From Gemmatales bacterium (GTDB lineage Bacteria > Planctomycetota > Planctomycetia > Gemmatales > Gemmataceae), in NCBI GenBank assembly GCA_038221045.1, contig JBBRIK010000001.1, positions 1-28,632 on the forward strand: a stretch of 28,632 nt of DNA, given 5' to 3'. The notes under the pieces are model-generated. The model was given only the letters and a program-made list of their open reading frames with translations. It did no database searches and was not told where the DNA came from. Below are positions 19,970 to 25,069 of this stretch, in pieces (the stretch's first letter is position 1; each line of letters starts with the position of its first letter). The translations under genes were made by a program, and so were the position numbers.

Positions 19970-20347
19970 ATGACTCGCGCACGAAGCGGCAAGACCGTGC
20001 TGCGGAATCGCGCACGCATGCGGAAGCTGACGAAGGGCTTTCGCGCTGGCCGACACCATCTCTATCGTCAATCTGTCGTCACCCTGATGCGGGCGCAGGT
20101 TTACGCCTACCGCGATCGGCGGGCGCGCAAACGCGATTTCCGCCGCCTGTGGATCATTCGCATTAACGCCGCCTGCCGCAGCCGAGGCATGCGCTACAGC
20201 GAGTTGATCGCCGGACTCGAACGCGGACTCGTCGCCGTCAACCGCAAGATGCTCTCCGAGATCGCCATTCACGATCCCGAGACGTTTACCAAGATCGTCG
20301 AACTGGCGCGAGCGAGTTTGCCCACCCGGCAGACAGTGTCTGCTTGA
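19970..20347 (+). CDS. rplT: 50S ribosomal protein L20, 125 aa
   Basis: YAYRDRRARKRDFRRLWIIRINAA, YSELIAGL, NRKMLSEIAIHDP. Confidence 0.97.
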   Translation: MTRARSGKTVLRNRARMRKLTKGFRAGRHHLYRQSVVTLMRAQVYAYRDRRARKRDFRRLWIIRINAACRSRGMRYSELIAGLERGLVAVNRKMLSEIAIHDPETFTKIVELARASLPTRQTVSA

Positions 20348-20351
20348 GAGG

Positions 20352-20470
20352 TCGGGGATCGGGGATCGGGCATGGGGCATCGGGAAGAACCGATCAGGTT
20401 CTTTTCTTCCCGATGCCCGATGCCCGATGCCCCGATCCCCGATCCCCGATCCCCGATCCCCGAATCCCGA
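20352..20470. repeat. Inverted heptamer tandem repeats (STRR-like) between rplT and pheS
   Basis: Left arm (GGGGATC)n/(GGGCATC)n then GAAGAA; right arm TTCTT then (CCCGATG)x3 (CCCCGAT)x4 CCCCGAA; arms complementary. Confidence 0.9.
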
Positions 20471-20479
20471 CACAATCCC

Positions 20480-21502
20480 ATGTCCGATCTCGCATCTCTC
20501 GAACAAACAGCGATCCAGGAGTTGAACGCCTGCACCGACGAGGCGTCGCTCCGCGCCTGGCACACACGCTATTTCGGCAAGCAGGGCGAAGTGCTGCTGG
20601 CCCTCAAGGGCATCGGCGGCGTTCCGCAGGATCAACGCAAGACCTACGGCCAAGAAGCCAATCGCATCAAGACCGCTCTCGAACAGGCGTACGAACAGGC
20701 CCTGGCCCGTGAAAAGGATCGCGCGCTCGAAGCGAGCCTCAAGGCCGATCCACTTGACGTGTCGCTGCCGGGACGCCAGGTCCCGCGCGGCCGGCTACAT
20801 GTCGCCACGCAGGTTATGCGCAGGATCTGCGCCATCTTCGCCGATCTCGGCTTTCAGGTCTATCGAAGCCGGGAGGTCGAGGACGATCTCACGAACTTCG
20901 AGTTGCTCAACATGCCGCCGCACCACCCGGCGCGCGACATGTGGGACACCTTCCACACGACGGTCCCCGGCGTCCTGCTGCGGACGCACACCTCGCCGGG
21001 ACAGATCCACGTCATGCGCGAGCAGTGTCCGAAGCCGATCCGCGTCATCCTGCCCGGCATGGTCTATCGCTACGAGCAGGTGACGACGCGCAGCGAGATG
21101 ATGTTCCATCAGGTCGAGGGACTCGCGGTCGGCCACGATATCACGATGGCGGATCTCAAGGGTACGCTGCTGGCGTTCGCGCGCCGGCTGTTCGGTCAGG
21201 ATCGCCAGATTCGCATCCGTTCGAGCTACTTCCCCTTCACCGAGCCATCCATCGAGGTGGACGTGAGTTGGCCGGTCGTCGATGCGGAGAGCGAGCGTCT
21301 GACCAAGGGTACCGGCTGGCTGGAGATTCTCGGCGCGGGCATGGTGCATCCAGTAGTGCTGCGCAACGGCGGCTACGATCCCGCGACGTATAGTGGCTTC
21401 GCCTTCGGTCTTGGCCCGCAGCGAATGACGATGGTGATGCATGCCATCGACGACATTCGCCACTTCTGGGGCAATGACCTGCGCTTCCTGAGGCAATTCT
21501 GA
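20480..21502 (+). CDS. pheS: Phenylalanine--tRNA ligase alpha subunit, 340 aa
   Basis: NFELLNMPPHHPARDMWDTF, LLRTHTSPGQ, FHQVEGL, YFPFTEPS, WLEILGAGMVHP, GFAFGLG. Confidence 0.97.
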   Translation: MSDLASLEQTAIQELNACTDEASLRAWHTRYFGKQGEVLLALKGIGGVPQDQRKTYGQEANRIKTALEQAYEQALAREKDRALEASLKADPLDVSLPGRQVPRGRLHVATQVMRRICAIFADLGFQVYRSREVEDDLTNFELLNMPPHHPARDMWDTFHTTVPGVLLRTHTSPGQIHVMREQCPKPIRVILPGMVYRYEQVTTRSEMMFHQVEGLAVGHDITMADLKGTLLAFARRLFGQDRQIRIRSSYFPFTEPSIEVDVSWPVVDAESERLTKGTGWLEILGAGMVHPVVLRNGGYDPATYSGFAFGLGPQRMTMVMHAIDDIRHFWGNDLRFLRQF

Positions 21503-21523
21503 GGTTCTTCGAGGAGGGGGACC

Positions 21524-22153
21524 ATGACCCTGAGCGATCGGTTGCAAGGGGACGTCGGCTACGCGGATCTCGTCACGGGCACCGACGATCTTTTGCGCGG
21601 CGAACTCGCTACGGATGTAGCCGCCGACTGGGACCTCGTCTCTGACGACCGGGGGGCACCCTGGCTTCAACTGCGGTTGAGCGACAAGGCCGGGGACCGG
21701 AGTGAGGCCCTGATTCGTCCCGAAGAGATGAAATTTCCGGTCCGGCTCAAGCAGAAAGTCGGGACGCTGAGCAGCAACCTGAAGCGCATTCAGGAATGGA
21801 AATCCCTTCTGCGTTCCTTGTTCGATCAGGTCCGTCTCTGGTGCGAACAGAAAGCCCCCGACTTGCTTCTTTCCGAGCGCCCGTACCTGGTCAAGGAAGA
21901 GTTGTTTGGCCAGTACCCGGCCAGTGTTCTCCACGCCGACAGCGACAAGGGCCATGCGGAGTTGCGCCCCATCGGCGCACGAGTCGTCGGCGCCGAGGGG
22001 CGTGTTGACGTTGTCGGACCGGAACAGGATCATGTCCTCATCTACGACACTCACGACGGCGGCTGGAACTGGGTCGATCGCAGCCCTCTTGTCACCTTTC
22101 GTCCTCTGAATGCGGACCTGATGGTCAGCCTCATTCGGGATTGTCTGGGATGA
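21524..22153 (+). CDS. Hypothetical protein, 209 aa, inserted between pheS and pheT
   Basis: GAGGAGG before the ATG; globular composition; EW..LL..L..QV..W...EE..GQYPA..L...LRPIGARVVGAEGRVDV; ATGA overlap with the next gene. Confidence 0.8.
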   Translation: MTLSDRLQGDVGYADLVTGTDDLLRGELATDVAADWDLVSDDRGAPWLQLRLSDKAGDRSEALIRPEEMKFPVRLKQKVGTLSSNLKRIQEWKSLLRSLFDQVRLWCEQKAPDLLLSERPYLVKEELFGQYPASVLHADSDKGHAELRPIGARVVGAEGRVDVVGPEQDHVLIYDTHDGGWNWVDRSPLVTFRPLNADLMVSLIRDCLG

Positions 22154-22372
22154 CCAATCCGCTCGAGCCTGTGTGGCAGGCGTATTGCTTTACGCGCGAC
22201 TGCCTGCGCGTGACACGGCGAGTGGTGGACAAGGCCCTTGCCGGCGCGATTACCGAACGAAGTGGCCCACGGACACGTTCGGGGCACTCCTCCCCCTGCC
22301 TACGCGGACCCCGCCACCGCCTTCAAACGGCTGACGGAATTCCTTGTTGAGGCCGGTTTGATCGGCCCCTGA
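22150..22372 (+). pseudogene. Decayed HEPN-motif gene (internal deletion plus frameshift)
   Basis: Frame 1: MTNPLEPVWQAYCFTRDCLRVTRRVVDKALAG. At 22248 GAT TAC CGA A^C GAA GTG GCC CAC GGA reads DYRNEVAHG (Rx4H) if one A is restored; the shifted frame continues ...PPPAYADPATAFKRLTEFLVEAGLIGP* (TGA 22370-72). Confidence 0.6.
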
Positions 22373-22515
22373 AAGCCTTGATCGGCACGAGCGATGATTC
22401 GTTCCCAGGTTCGCCGCCCCTTGTAGGGCAGGCACAACCTCACCTACAACGAAGAAGAGCTATCGCAAAGCCGTTTTCAGCGTTTCCACCCAATCGGGCA
22501 AATGAGGGTCGAGGA

Positions 22516-22552: not shown

Positions 22553-25069
22553 ATGAAAATCCCTCTGAGCTGGCTTCGCGATTACGTTGACGTCACCCTT
22601 CCCGTCGAGCAGTTGGCCGTCCGGCTGACGCTCGCCGGACTCGAGGTCGCCGGCATTCGGCCCGTCGGTCTGCCCGTCCCCGAAGGAGTGCGCGTCAAGC
22701 CCGAGGACGCCGGCCCGGTCTGGGAGCGCGACAAGGTCGTCATCGCCGAGGTTCTTGAGGTCGTCAAGCATCCTGACGCCGACAAGCTCAAGTTGCCGCT
22801 CGTCTCGTTCGGGGGCGGCAAGACCAAGCAGCTCCTGACCGGCGCTCCGAACCTTAACGTCGGCGACAAGGGCCAGAAGGTCGTCGTCGGCCTCGCCGGC
22901 ACGACCTACTTCGATGGCCATAGCAAGGACAAGAAGAAGGAACTCAAGGCCCTCAAACCGGCGACGGTACGCGGCATCCTCTCCGACGCGATGGTCATGT
23001 CGCAGTTCGAGTTGGGCATCGCCGACGATCACGAGGGCATCATCCTCCTCGACGAGGATGCCCCGGTGGGGACGCCGTTCGCCGACTACATGGGCGATTT
23101 CGTCCTCGAAATCGACGTGCTGCCCAACATGGCCCGCTGTCTGTCGATGATCGGCATCGCCCGCGAAGTGGCCGCCCTGACGGGACAGACGCTGAGATAT
23201 CCCCCGGCGCTCAGCGGCGTCTCGAACGAGGCCATCGAGGGACAGGTCAAGGTCGTCATCGAGGACCCGGCCCTGTCGGCGCGCTATGCCGCGATGCTGC
23301 TGAAGAGCGTGAAGGTCGGTCCGTCGCCGTACTGGATGAAGCGCCGTCTGACCCTTGCCGGCATGAGGCCCATCAACAACCTCGTCGATGTGACCAATTA
23401 CGTCATGCTCGAATGGGGCCAGCCGCTGCACGCCTTCGATTTCGACAAACTCAGGGAACGCGCCGGCGGCAAGACGCCGGCGATCATCGTCCGGCCCGCG
23501 CGTGCCGGCGAGAAACTGACCACCCTCGATAAGGCCGAGCGAACGCTGGCGGCGGAGAACCTCGTCATCGCCGACGAGAAGGGAGCGATCGCGCTGGCCG
23601 GCGTCATGGGCGGACTCGAAACCGAGGTGACGGAATCAACGAAGCAGGTGCTGCTCGAGTCGGCCAGCTTCCATTTCGTCAGCATTCGGCGAACCTATCG
23701 GGCGATGGATCTGCCGAGCGAGGCGAGCGCGCGTTTCTCGCGCGGCGTCCATCCCGAGATGGTCAAGCCGGCCGCCGAACGCGCCTGCGATCTCATGCGC
23801 CAGTACGGCGGCGCGAGCGTCTGCAAGGGCGTCATCGACGTTTACCCCGCGCCGCTGACTCCGCAAGTCATCGACCTGAAGCTGAGCGAGGTTCGCCGCA
23901 AGCTCGGCATGGACGTCTCGAAAGAGGAAGCGACACGGGTGCTGTCGGCCCTCGAATTCAAGGTTGCGGACGCGGGGGAGGGGACGCTGCGCGTGACCGC
24001 CCCGCCGCATCGCCTCGACATCCAGGAAGGGGAGGCGGACCTCATCGAAGAACTGGCCCGCATTCATGGCTACGATCGCCTGCCGGCCACGCTCATCCGC
24101 GAGGCGCTGCCCGAGCCGGTGGGCAATGCCGCCCTCGAACACGAGGAGCGCATCCGCGATCTGCTGGTCAACGCCGGCCTGCAAGAAGTCGTCACCTATG
24201 CGCTGACGGAGCCAGCCCGCGAGAAGCCGATGGGATTGCCGGAGCGCGAGTACGTCCGCCTGGTCAACCCCATCAGCAGCGAGCGCGTCGTCATGCGGCA
24301 CAGCCTCCTTGCGAGTGTGCTGGAGGTGACGGGGACGAACTTGAAACATGCCGGCGACGTGCGCCTGTTCGAGATTGGCCGGGTCTATCTGCCGTGCACC
24401 AGCGACAAGTTGCCGGACGAACCCTTACGGCTGGCGCTGGCGCTGACGGGCTGGCGTCAGCCGGAGTTCTGGGGCGTGCCGGCGGGAACCGAGCGCCAGC
24501 CGCTCGACTTCTTCGACCTCAAGGGCGTCGTCGAGGGATTGGCCGCCGACCTGCATCTGGCAGACGTGAGCTATCAGCGTTCGGCCGTGCCGTACCTGCA
24601 TCCGGCCCTGGCAGCGGACCTGCTTGTCGGCGGACAGGTGGTTGGCTCCTTCGGCCAGTTGCATCCGCGCACGGCGGAAGCCTACAAGCTCGGAGGCCGG
24701 CCCCTCCTCGCTGGCGAGTTCGACCTCGAAGCGATCCTGAAGGCCGTGCCGGCGCGGTATGCGTATGCGTCGATTTCTCCGTATCCGCCCGCGCTGCGAG
24801 ACGTCGCAGTCATCGTCGATGAGACGGTGACGGCGGAGCAGGTGTTGAAGGAGATTCGCGGCGCCGGCGGAGCGCTCTTGAGCGAGGCGCGTCTGTTCGA
24901 CCTCTACCGGGGCGACAGCATCGCGGCCGGCAAGAAGAGTCTCGCCTACGCGCTGACCTATCAGTCGAACGAGGGAACGCTGAGCGACAAGGAGATCGAC
25001 AAGGTCCACAAGAAGGTCGAGGATCGGCTGAAGCACACCCTCAAGGCATCGATTCGCGGGCAGGAGTGA
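22553..25069 (+). CDS. pheT: Phenylalanine--tRNA ligase beta subunit, 838 aa
   Basis: MKIPLSWLRDYV, KHPDADKL, PNMARCLS, RPINNLVDVTNYVMLEWGQPLHAFD, AGVMGG, LLESASF, DLIEELARIHGY, LFDLYRG, KKSLAY (FDX-ACB). Confidence 0.97.
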   Translation: MKIPLSWLRDYVDVTLPVEQLAVRLTLAGLEVAGIRPVGLPVPEGVRVKPEDAGPVWERDKVVIAEVLEVVKHPDADKLKLPLVSFGGGKTKQLLTGAPNLNVGDKGQKVVVGLAGTTYFDGHSKDKKKELKALKPATVRGILSDAMVMSQFELGIADDHEGIILLDEDAPVGTPFADYMGDFVLEIDVLPNMARCLSMIGIAREVAALTGQTLRYPPALSGVSNEAIEGQVKVVIEDPALSARYAAMLLKSVKVGPSPYWMKRRLTLAGMRPINNLVDVTNYVMLEWGQPLHAFDFDKLRERAGGKTPAIIVRPARAGEKLTTLDKAERTLAAENLVIADEKGAIALAGVMGGLETEVTESTKQVLLESASFHFVSIRRTYRAMDLPSEASARFSRGVHPEMVKPAAERACDLMRQYGGASVCKGVIDVYPAPLTPQVIDLKLSEVRRKLGMDVSKEEATRVLSALEFKVADAGEGTLRVTAPPHRLDIQEGEADLIEELARIHGYDRLPATLIREALPEPVGNAALEHEERIRDLLVNAGLQEVVTYALTEPAREKPMGLPEREYVRLVNPISSERVVMRHSLLASVLEVTGTNLKHAGDVRLFEIGRVYLPCTSDKLPDEPLRLALALTGWRQPEFWGVPAGTERQPLDFFDLKGVVEGLAADLHLADVSYQRSAVPYLHPALAADLLVGGQVVGSFGQLHPRTAEAYKLGGRPLLAGEFDLEAILKAVPARYAYASISPYPPALRDVAVIVDETVTAEQVLKEIRGAGGALLSEARLFDLYRGDSIAAGKKSLAYALTYQSNEGTLSDKEIDKVHKKVEDRLKHTLKASIRGQE

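Follow-up and report, generated by a model that had tools for sequence, protein, structure and literature searches.

We wanted to establish what separates pheS from pheT in the 28,632-nucleotide stretch of Gemmatales DNA analyzed here (the window), and how one of the two genes found there came to be broken while the other stayed intact. The original prediction, made from the letters alone, was a HEPN toxin gene inactivated behind an intact partner gene of a type other than minimal nucleotidyltransferase (MNT). The features that bear on this question are as follows (G001 is the genome of a sister species).

20480–21502, forward strand: pheS (PheRS alpha subunit), the upstream flank, an ORF with 93% identity to G001 pheS.
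21524–22153, forward strand: ORF209, the "long partner" gene, intact at 209 amino acids, its frame open throughout.
21524–21781, forward strand: extra N-terminal domain of ORF209 (amino acids 1–86), similar to standalone proteins of ~110 amino acids.
21782–22150, forward strand: partner domain of ORF209 (amino acids ~87–209), matched by the partner HMM (alignments A3 and A8).
22150–22153, forward strand: ATGA overlap of the partner stop (TGA, 22151–22153) with the start of the HEPN remnant (ATG at 22150).
22150–22254, forward strand: N part of the HEPN remnant, 35 amino acids in frame 0, first helix, aligned to residues 1–36 of alignment A11.
22150–22350, forward strand: present-day ORF, open in frame 0, 66 amino acids (35 native and 31 out of frame).
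22210–22303, forward strand: 94-nt segment missing in G001 (DNA alignment A1), made up of 45 nt of the N part, 1 nt, and 48 nt of the C part.
22248–22256, forward strand: deletion junction GATTACCGA, where frame 0 reads ...AIT and frame +2 reads DYR.
22256–22372, forward strand: C part of the HEPN remnant, 38 amino acids and a stop in frame +1, the top match to the HEPN profile.
22553–25069, forward strand: pheT (PheRS beta subunit), the downstream flank, an ORF.

The predicted arrangement of an intact 209-amino-acid gene coupled by ATGA to a broken gene holds. Reading the broken gene in frame 0 from 22150 gives MTNPLEPVWQAYCFTRDCLRVTRRVVDKALAGAIT..., open up to 22350; frame +2 gives RRDYR at 22242–22256; and frame +1 gives NEVAHGHVRGTPPPAYADPATAFKRLTEFLVEAGLIGP followed by a stop at 22256–22372, which carries the His of the Rx4H motif (NEVAHG) and the last helix. 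The three readings in three frames exist as claimed, but, because RRDYR shares the bases at 22248–22256 with "AIT," the gene is best described as two parts with a net +1 offset across a deletion scar, an offset read in a ~5x metagenome assembly. Independent contigs (Logan) break at 22151: in the best run, at ~5x depth, they cover 21464–22151 exactly and leave a hole at 22152–22512. An Rx4-6H motif in a single frame is absent from the window's copy: the His lies in frame +1 and the sole candidate Arg (in RRDYR) in frame +2.

To assign the fragments to a family, we scored all 932 stop-to-stop pieces of the window and the G001 locus with a profile of intact family members (alignment A2). The C part ranked first (E = 1.7e-4; positions 141–169 of 179), and reading through the breaks with X extended the match over positions 136–169. 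The N part alone scored weakly (E ~2) and aligns residue for residue with the N termini of a closer HEPN subfamily (alignment A11), with 51% identity overall to the L138 protein; in the same alignment, the C part is matched with ...NWVAHG...PAxAYQRLTEFLxQAGIxxP. Both fragments, as originally proposed, belong to one protein family of ~175 amino acids and represent its two ends. The nearest intact relative of the N part, P0322, reads MTNPLDPVWQSY...LSGAITDKH, and intact homologs carry ...GAITDKH... at about residue 36 and ...IIDYRNWVAHG... at about residue 140. Aligned to the ends of the family, the window's copy lacks ~102 core residues; of its helices, only the first and the last one or two are retained. 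The junction GATTACCGA is a single copy of a short shared stretch, as a deletion between direct repeats would leave. Scans of the three frame pieces against Pfam, NCBIfam, and PADLOC gave no match, and metagenome scans for the N part of the stub found none. We also considered, and rejected, the reading that the remnant is a chance Rx4H-like string: the profile match, the residue alignment with A11, the conservation of the ATGA coupling, and the presence of an orthologous G001 stub all speak against it.

The intact HEPN family consists of single-domain proteins of ~175 amino acids (171–193), in which the motif RNWVAHG (Rx4H) is invariant across the intact family, with R-N-Q-V-A-H at this position in P0322, the closest intact relative of the window's copy. 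None of its 198 relatives has a recorded Pfam domain or an informative name. A model of the family, made on the protein P0003 (contig C109 of the window's own genome, in which three intact copies lie elsewhere), reached a pLDDT of 93.7 and forms the up-and-down helical bundle of the HEPN fold. Its best matches among solved structures are HEPN proteins (1jog, 1wwp, 5yep_B, 8xdj, 2hsb, 7ae2, and the C-terminal domain of AbiA; Z 5.8–7.8), which in this structure-only search cover most of the domain, and the top-ranking clusters of AlphaFold DB bear the name RiboL-PSP-HEPN (TM 0.72–0.85). In sequence space, sub-threshold matches to PF18735 (HEPN_RiboL-PSP), centered on the motif, were found for 14 of 29 members (best E = 2.6e-4), none reaching the gathering cut-off of 28.4 bits; the corresponding figure for the long-partner HEPN subfamily is 2 of 11 (best E = 0.0049). 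DUF4145 gave sub-threshold Pfam matches for 17 of the 29 members, PADLOC gave weak, non-significant matches to Csm6-type HEPN models only, and the A2 profile had no match among PDB sequences. Foldseek against the PDB returned no match for either the HEPN or the partner model, and the informative structure searches are those with a Foldseek-independent aligner and with AlphaFold DB clusters only. On this confident model, we conclude that the intact family has the HEPN fold, with the RiboL-PSP-HEPN branch nearest, which agrees with the HEPN identity first read from the motif. The family is a predicted RNase of a RiboL-PSP-like branch; the literature reports no RNase activity, toxicity, or neutralization for it or for a known homolog.

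A word-based protein search with ORF209 retrieved the window's protein and its G001 ortholog (80% identity) and nothing else, and an exhaustive HMMER search was therefore needed, which found ~40 full-length homologs of ~210 amino acids (alignment A10). The C-terminal ~120 amino acids of ORF209 are a member of a family of ~160-amino-acid partner proteins, as seen from the match of ORF209 to a partner HMM built without it (E = 7.8e-10; profile positions 21–150 of 161). These canonical partners are without the extra N-terminal domain, which resembles standalone proteins of ~110 amino acids at five loci (L003, L007, L008, L009, and L012) and the N terminus of a 317-amino-acid protein at L010. Judged by these similarities, the 209-amino-acid protein is a fusion of an extra N-terminal domain and a partner domain. 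Because MAFFT misaligned the N-domain homologs, the partners, and ORF209 when they were taken jointly (alignments A4–A7), the structure was modeled on a canonical partner (alignment A8) and not on ORF209, so that the N-terminal domain lies outside the model. The canonical partner shows a long N-terminal helix, a seven-strand sheet, and a C-terminal helix (pLDDT 91.3), and its top matches among solved structures are CyaY/frataxin (Z 9.4 and 9.2). A frataxin-like α/β sandwich is thus the predicted fold. Both the nucleotidyltransferase signature (GSxxDxD) and the nucleotidyltransferase fold are absent from ORF209 and the partner family, according to the scans and the canonical-partner model, which bears out the claim of a non-MNT partner. 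Neither ORF209 nor the partner family had a match in Pfam, NCBIfam, or PADLOC, and every AlphaFold DB neighbor of the partner family is named "uncharacterized"; together with the unnamed relatives of the HEPN family, this fits the suggestion that the pair is possibly undescribed. A Protein Atlas look-up with the N-terminal domain of ORF209 gave no usable match, and metagenome scans for more relatives of ORF209 found none.

The two families occur together. In all 79 canonical loci, the gene immediately before the HEPN gene encodes a partner homolog, with an identical 4-nt overlap in 67 of them, and among full-length long-partner homologs in other genera the HEPN gene comes next in nine of nine and is intact in eight; at L136, its frame is shifted near the N terminus. 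The predicted linkage of partner homologs to HEPN genes thus stands. We counted 158 module loci among the species genomes scanned, all in Planctomycetota, with several copies per genome and flanking genes that vary between loci, and the layout is that of a generic type II toxin-antitoxin (TA) system (two small, co-directional, coupled genes in variable contexts). By analogy with type II TA and abortive-infection pairs, we infer that the HEPN protein would be a toxic RNase that the partner neutralizes by binding. Three loci fit a simple TA model badly, because a broken partner stands beside an apparently intact HEPN gene (L002, with an in-frame TGA, in the window's own genome; L061; and L063), unless sequencing errors or protection in trans account for them; counts of broken partners against broken HEPN genes are biased, since every search favors intact copies of its query. 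A complex prediction for a cognate pair from contig C650 of the window's genome scored 0.00, which bears neither way on binding.

How the module came to lie between pheS and pheT can be read from its relatives. The spacing of the two genes is 1050 nt in the window and 827 nt in G001, compared with 13–208 nt in the 12 related genomes in which both were found together; pheS itself has 63–78% identity to that of relatives in the family and order. A long partner is linked to pheS in eight lineages (the window, G001, P0123, P0125, P0126, P0131, P0155, and P0152), and these eight partners form one clade (support 96/83), nested within a long-partner family that lacks pheS linkage. At P0125, P0126, and P0152, the pheS-linked partner is followed by a candidate HEPN gene of 157–176 amino acids, known by its size; those at P0126 and P0152 (174 and 176 amino acids) overlap the partner by 4 nt. 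In others, the downstream gene is reduced or gone. By these comparisons, the insertion into the pheST operon is old and clade-wide: the module does sit inside an essential operon, as first proposed, but did not arrive there recently. The pheS tree is poorly resolved and does not tell whether the insertion was inherited vertically or moved by site-specific transfer. Between 19900 and 22700, Rfam and promoter/terminator scans gave only spurious miRNA-precursor matches, on a long palindrome upstream of pheS.

Taken together, we conclude that 21524–22372 is probably a decayed copy of a Planctomycetota module of partner and HEPN genes that entered the pheST operon and has since lost the core of its HEPN gene. 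The module consists of a partner followed by a translationally coupled HEPN-fold protein of ~175 amino acids with an Rx4H motif. Its long-partner subtype would have entered the infC-rpmI-rplT-pheS-pheT operon once, in the ancestor of a Gemmataceae-level clade, and have been retained there ever since. In the window, an internal deletion between short repeats would then have taken ~102 HEPN codons, among them those for the conserved helices of the core and for the part of the active site that holds the Arg, leaving the N and C ends out of frame. G001 has a different, larger gap, with an in-frame stub of 42 amino acids left. Loss of the toxin core would have been tolerated while the partner was kept. 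That the predicted toxin lost its middle while the partner stayed intact is consistent with the earlier proposal, but a dead pseudogene is not the only reading of what is left, because the remnants carry a signature of purifying selection.

Against G001, dN/dS is 0.13 for ORF209, 0.08 for pheS, and 0.07 for the N and C pieces of the remnant together, the last figure being based on only 24 substitutions (17 synonymous and 7 non-synonymous); read in the wrong frames, the pieces give values above 2. Neutral evolution is rejected for the N piece (p = 9e-5) and the C piece (p = 0.004), and a history split evenly between neutrality and constraint is also rejected, for the N piece (p = 0.005) as well as for both together (p = 0.001), but not for the C piece alone (p = 0.07). 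Between the two species, the stub pieces are conserved, whereas the intergenic DNA beyond the stop gives a poor alignment. The partner and both remnant pieces thus bear the sequence signature of strong purifying selection. A long-dead pseudogene would not reject neutrality, so that one must suppose either a functional stub or deletions that were recent and independent in the two species.

We tentatively consider, as one course that the decay of the module may have taken, that the common ancestor of the window's species and G001 had an intact HEPN gene of ~175 amino acids, that each species deleted its core recently, and that the remnants are now non-functional, their low dN/dS dating from the period before deletion. 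The retained extents differ (35 N-terminal and 38 C-terminal residues in the window, 20 and 22 in G001) and have no common breakpoint, microhomology is found at both junctions (CGCG flanks the segment missing in G001), and the C piece tolerates a half-neutral history. Decay of the HEPN gene also recurs elsewhere, at L147, L136, L149, and L129 and in the C-terminally short P0322. Arranged by what remains downstream of the partner, the copies form a series from 157–176 amino acids (candidate HEPN genes), through 159 amino acids (P0322, a HEPN protein, provisionally placed here), ~73 amino acids in two out-of-frame parts (the window), and 42 amino acids in frame (G001), to none (L129). This course requires two parallel losses in sister species, and the second Trp of the N-terminal WxWY/xWY motif, otherwise invariant, is lost in both, which hints at constraint relaxed before they split, although the intact P0322 shares the change.

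It is possible, if rather doubtful, that the stub is instead a selected miniature protein that joins the first HEPN helix to the final one or two (42 amino acids in G001 and ~73 in the window) and could bind or stabilize the long partner; the window's single-base offset would then have arisen very recently by mutation or be an error of the assembly. The low dN/dS in the native frames, the rejected half-neutral histories of the N piece and of both pieces, and the conservation of the stub relative to the DNA beyond it would all follow, and the G001 ORF is in frame: an ancestor that was in frame, with one base added in the window, would account for its gap of 45 + 1 + 48 nt. L147 (G013:C656) has an independent in-frame stub of N and C parts after an intact partner, and the low depth of the assembly and the break in the independent contigs leave room for an error in the window. 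However, the assembled window has its two parts in different frames, two of three stubs in frame would be unremarkable by chance, and the number of substitutions is small; with no breakpoint shared, independent recent deletions of an intact gene account equally well for the low dN/dS. Further, the partner at L129 persists with no trace of a HEPN gene, which indicates that a partner needs no stub.

An unlikely, broader form of this idea is that the long partner has been domesticated in the infC-rpmI-rplT-pheS-pheT operon of the Gemmataceae clade, perhaps with a HEPN-derived mini-peptide as a selected complex, and has taken on a new role; it might guard against the genome's other HEPN copies or act on PheRS or tRNA-Phe. 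Finally, we regard it as improbable that the pair is no conflict module at all but serves PheRS or the ribosomal-protein operon in a housekeeping capacity (as an RNA-processing factor and its chaperone, for example), so that its location reflects function and not insertion, for, although the long partner is kept between pheS and pheT in eight lineages with a dN/dS near the pheS and pheT values, both families have most of their copies at other sites with unrelated surroundings, several to a genome, pheS and pheT are adjacent in most relatives, the HEPN member is repeatedly lost, and the pheS-linked clade is nested among partners without that linkage.

The preferred reading, a decayed partner–HEPN module, would add a new HEPN-based two-gene module, widespread in Planctomycetota, whose partner family has no description in any library. 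Its location is rare, an accessory conflict module long held inside an essential aminoacyl-tRNA synthetase operon, and it offers a natural decay series, with the partner under selection throughout, that makes testable why toxins are outlived by antitoxin-like genes and perhaps by their own stubs. Intact pairs exist as material for toxicity-and-rescue and phage-defense tests. If the partner has been domesticated, the locus would not be a decaying selfish module.

Among known systems, the RiboL-PSP-HEPN domain (PF18735) is nearest. It has been described in fusions with endoRNase L-PSP or as a neighbor of ParB in an operon, and its branch as a distant relative of AbiD and AbiF (Anantharaman et al. 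2013, PMC3710099). The family described here shares its all-helical HEPN fold and conserved Rx4H (R-N-x-x-A-H) but is standalone, and its neighbor is always an uncharacterized partner of ~160 or ~210 amino acids that precedes it, not endoRNase L-PSP or ParB. As in HEPN-MNT type II/VII TA systems (SO_3166/SO_3165, PDB 5yep; 7ae2; 8xdj), there are two small co-directional genes, one encoding an Rx4H HEPN protein, in mobile and multiple copies, and the best structural matches include HEPN-MNT toxins (Z 6.5–7.2). Unlike in those systems, the partner has neither GSxxDxD nor the nucleotidyltransferase (pol-β) fold and is predicted to be a frataxin-like sandwich; because it is not a minimal nucleotidyltransferase, neutralization by AMPylation is not expected. 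The match to the AbiA C-terminal domain and the weak DUF4145 matches recall abortive-infection HEPNs; however, the known AbiD/AbiF, AbiA, and DUF4145 proteins occur singly or fused to effector domains of other kinds. Last, the truncated predicted toxin beside an intact, constrained partner resembles orphan antitoxins and degraded TA loci. It differs from both in lying inside an essential aminoacyl-tRNA synthetase operon, conserved across a clade, and in that the remnant consists of exactly the two ends of the predicted toxin and bears a signature of purifying selection.

The window carries the following genes between rplT and pheT.

Features of the locus (window coordinates, forward strand)
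19970-20347, rplT
20480-21502, pheS
21524-22153, ORF209, the long partner gene (209 aa)
22150-22254, HEPN remnant, N part (35 aa), aligning to one end of the HEPN subfamily described below
22256-22369, HEPN remnant, C part (38 aa), aligning to the other end of that subfamily
22553-25069, pheT

The TGA of ORF209 is overlapped by an ATG at 22150 (ATGA), from which frame 0 encodes MTNPLEPVWQAYCFTRDCLRVTRRVVDKALAGAIT before continuing, out of register, as far as a stop at 22350; frame +2 contains RRDYR (22242-22256), and frame +1 contains NEVAHGHVRGTPPPAYADPATAFKRLTEFLVEAGLIGP followed by a stop (22256-22372). The original prediction of an intact 209-aa gene coupled by ATGA to a gene split over three frames was accurate on direct reading. 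Neither ORF209 nor the three frame pieces had a direct match in Pfam, NCBIfam, or PADLOC. We also note a long near-perfect palindrome of GGGGATC and CGGGCAT repeats between rplT and pheS (20342-20462), which gave spurious miRNA-precursor matches in Rfam and might act as a terminator or attenuator or represent a repeat element. In the best-matching run, the Logan contigs end exactly at 22151 and restart at 22513, leaving the remnant and the pheT leader uncovered, possibly because depth is low or strains are mixed there. A second run from that study contains a 205-nt contig with 16 differences from ORF209 over 118 aligned bases (window 21927-22044; ∼86% identity), and that sample probably contains a related strain or species with an ORF209-like gene.

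The family of the broken gene was reached through weak ORF209 matches in related genomes, which led to loci with a shorter homolog of the C-terminal half of ORF209, the same ATGA overlap, and then a 175-200-aa protein containing ...VRRYRNWVAHGRR...P..AYERLQRFL. This protein has 198 detectable relatives, the named source organisms of which are Gemmataceae, and none of which is informatively named or has a recorded Pfam domain. In the alignment of intact members (A2), R-N-W-V-A and G are invariant, and H is nearly so. A structure-only search of 48,161 PDB chains with the confident family model (pLDDT 93.7) placed HEPN proteins on top (Z 5.8-7.8: 1jog, 1wwp, the HEPN toxins 5yep_B, 8xdj, and 7ae2, and 2hsb, MtlR, YutE, and the AbiA C-terminal domain), and the top AlphaFold DB clusters carry the name RiboL-PSP-HEPN (TM 0.72-0.85, E down to 2e-11). 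Individual members gave sub-threshold Pfam matches to DUF4145 (17/29) and HEPN_RiboL-PSP (14/29). Of the 932 stop-to-stop pieces from the window plus the locus of the sister species (G001), all scored with the A2 profile, the C piece of the window ranked first (E=1.7e-4, profile positions 141-169 of 179); the N piece matched weakly (positions 4-27), and the remnant read through with X at the breaks matched over 136-169. The profile match and the HEPN fold of the family model bear out that the broken gene is a HEPN gene. Three intact HEPN copies lie elsewhere in this genome (contigs C109, C1078, and C650).

An exhaustive HMMER search yielded ∼40 full-length ORF209 homologs, roughly 210 aa in length. 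Across nine further genomes of the order, the gene after each long partner belongs to a distinct HEPN subfamily; it is intact in eight of the nine and frame-shifted near the N terminus in L136 (G265:C374). The subfamily begins M(A/T)NPLDP..WY.TA.DSIRVTRRV...GA.T.KH and ends ...VKQIIDYRNWVAHG....P.P....PA.AYQRLTEFL.QAGI..P. Both remnant parts align to the two ends of this one subfamily (alignment A11), with ∼102 residues absent between them and the parts out of frame, as expected from the prediction that the toxin had lost its middle and its frame and that the partner had stayed intact. Within the absent core lie the conserved helices ELxRLxVLALxAxFERTLRDHL and WNIS, together with the Arg side of the motif. 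The closest intact relative is P0322 (...LSGAITDKH... and ...IIDWRNQVAHGHVRG...). In the window, GATTACCGA (22248-22256) has two readings, one giving the end of the N part (AIT) and the other the DYR preceding the His helix; a scar of this type is what a deletion between two short direct repeats would produce. The C part lies one base further out of register. Relative to the window, G001 has a 94-nt gap (45 nt of the N part, 1 nt, and 48 nt of the C part), which takes out the out-of-frame junction and leaves an in-frame 42-aa ORF; the two species have no deletion breakpoint in common. Loss of the core with both ends kept recurs, because L147 (G013:C656, 1926-2072), in which an intact partner precedes a HEPN gene with an in-frame internal deletion, is an independent stub with MKTLADAWDWYEAT (N14) joined directly to WVAHGRR...MAYER....

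Substitutions between the window and G001 bear on the history of the stub.

Divergence between the window and G001
pheS: dN/dS 0.08, dS 0.48
pheT (N-terminal part): dN/dS 0.09, dS 0.52
ORF209: dN/dS 0.13, dS 0.85
Remnant N and C pieces together: dN/dS 0.07, dS about 1.07

Between the two species, the remnant pieces show 17 synonymous and 7 non-synonymous changes, neutral evolution is rejected for each (N, p=9e-5; C, p=0.004), and the wrong frames give dN/dS > 2. These data fit independent recent deletions, in which each species separately lost the core of a still-intact gene and the low dN/dS predates the deletions. They also fit a selected mini-gene, in which the stub is functional and the window acquired its offset very recently or through an assembly error; they do not separate the two histories.

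Scanning a single genome for each species turned up 158 loci, all of them in Planctomycetota (Gemmataceae, Isosphaeraceae, Pirellulales, Gemmata, Fimbriiglobus, and Paludisphaera), of which 80 were kept, 79 with upstream DNA. The linkage of the partner to HEPN genes held throughout: it lies directly upstream in 79/79, with an exact 4-nt overlap in 67/79, and the genes flanking the pair vary. The canonical partner is 156-165 aa long, and its HMM, built without ORF209, matches ORF209 residues 91-205 (E=7.8e-10). Its model (pLDDT 91.3) has a long N-terminal helix, a seven-strand sheet, and a C-terminal helix. Among solved structures, only CyaY/frataxin exceeds Z 8 (Z 9.4 and 9.2), with type III secretion chaperones and an Rhs immunity protein at lower rank; its AlphaFold DB neighbors are all uncharacterized, and it matched nothing in Pfam or PADLOC. 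As originally proposed, the partner is not a nucleotidyltransferase. In ORF209, the partner domain occupies residues 87-209, and residues 1-86 resemble ∼110-aa standalone proteins. The latter (L003 on C113 of this genome, L007, L009, and L012) are each followed by a ∼100-aa protein with a coiled coil and a C-terminal membrane helix, which looks like another conserved gene pair. The N domain joins different partners, because in L010 (G001:C739, 1432-2382) it is fused to an unrelated ∼230-aa C-terminal region, which has no PADLOC match.

In 12 relatives with both genes found together, pheS and pheT are 13-208 nt apart, compared with 1050 nt in the window and 827 nt in G001. The long partner directly follows pheS in eight lineages.

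Long partners directly after pheS
Window: 209 aa; then N35 and C38 parts, out of frame
G001: 209 aa; then a 42-aa in-frame stub
P0123 (L129/L130): 209 aa; then an unrelated 92-aa gene, no HEPN trace
P0125: 199 aa; then a 157-aa gene, possibly HEPN
P0126: 208 aa; then a 174-aa gene, possibly HEPN, 4-nt overlap
P0152: 228 aa; then a 176-aa gene, possibly HEPN, 4-nt overlap
P0131: 220 aa; then the contig ends
P0155: 214 aa; then the contig ends

The 92-aa ORF in the place of the HEPN gene (L129, 3703-3981; MDERFRQLQVGDQIRF...) does not resemble the HEPN profile. The eight pheS-linked lineages group in one supported clade (96/83) in a maximum-likelihood tree of long partners, nested among copies not near pheS, which points to a single entry into the pheST operon. 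Judged from these sequences, the pheST location is old and clade-wide; the pheS tree is poorly resolved and does not separate vertical descent with losses from site-specific transfer.

The HEPN protein would be an RNase toxin that the upstream partner would bind and so neutralize, in the manner of type II toxin-antitoxin or abortive-infection pairs. This reading is favored by the obligate coupling of the two genes, their mobility, their presence in several copies within a genome, the conserved catalytic motif, and the repeated loss of HEPN with retention of the partner; however, a few loci (L002, L061, and L063) have a broken partner beside an apparently intact HEPN. In L002 (168-1237, on C109 of this genome), a second module copy combines an intact HEPN of 185 aa (P0003) with a partner gene that contains an in-frame TGA (L002:453-455), the reverse of the state in the window; a sequencing error, read-through, or neutralization of the toxin by another partner may explain this. 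The partner genes of L061 and L063 are each broken across two frames.

In the literature and libraries searched, we found no paper or library model describing the partner or the pair. The most interesting features are the conserved pheST residence and the graded decay series. The HEPN protein is a member of the HEPN superfamily, nearest the RiboL-PSP branch, which was described with its fusions and neighbors by Anantharaman et al. 2013 (PMC3710099); unlike that branch, the family here falls below the Pfam threshold and is without those fusions and neighbors. Compared with HEPN-MNT modules, the layout is alike, but the partner is different.
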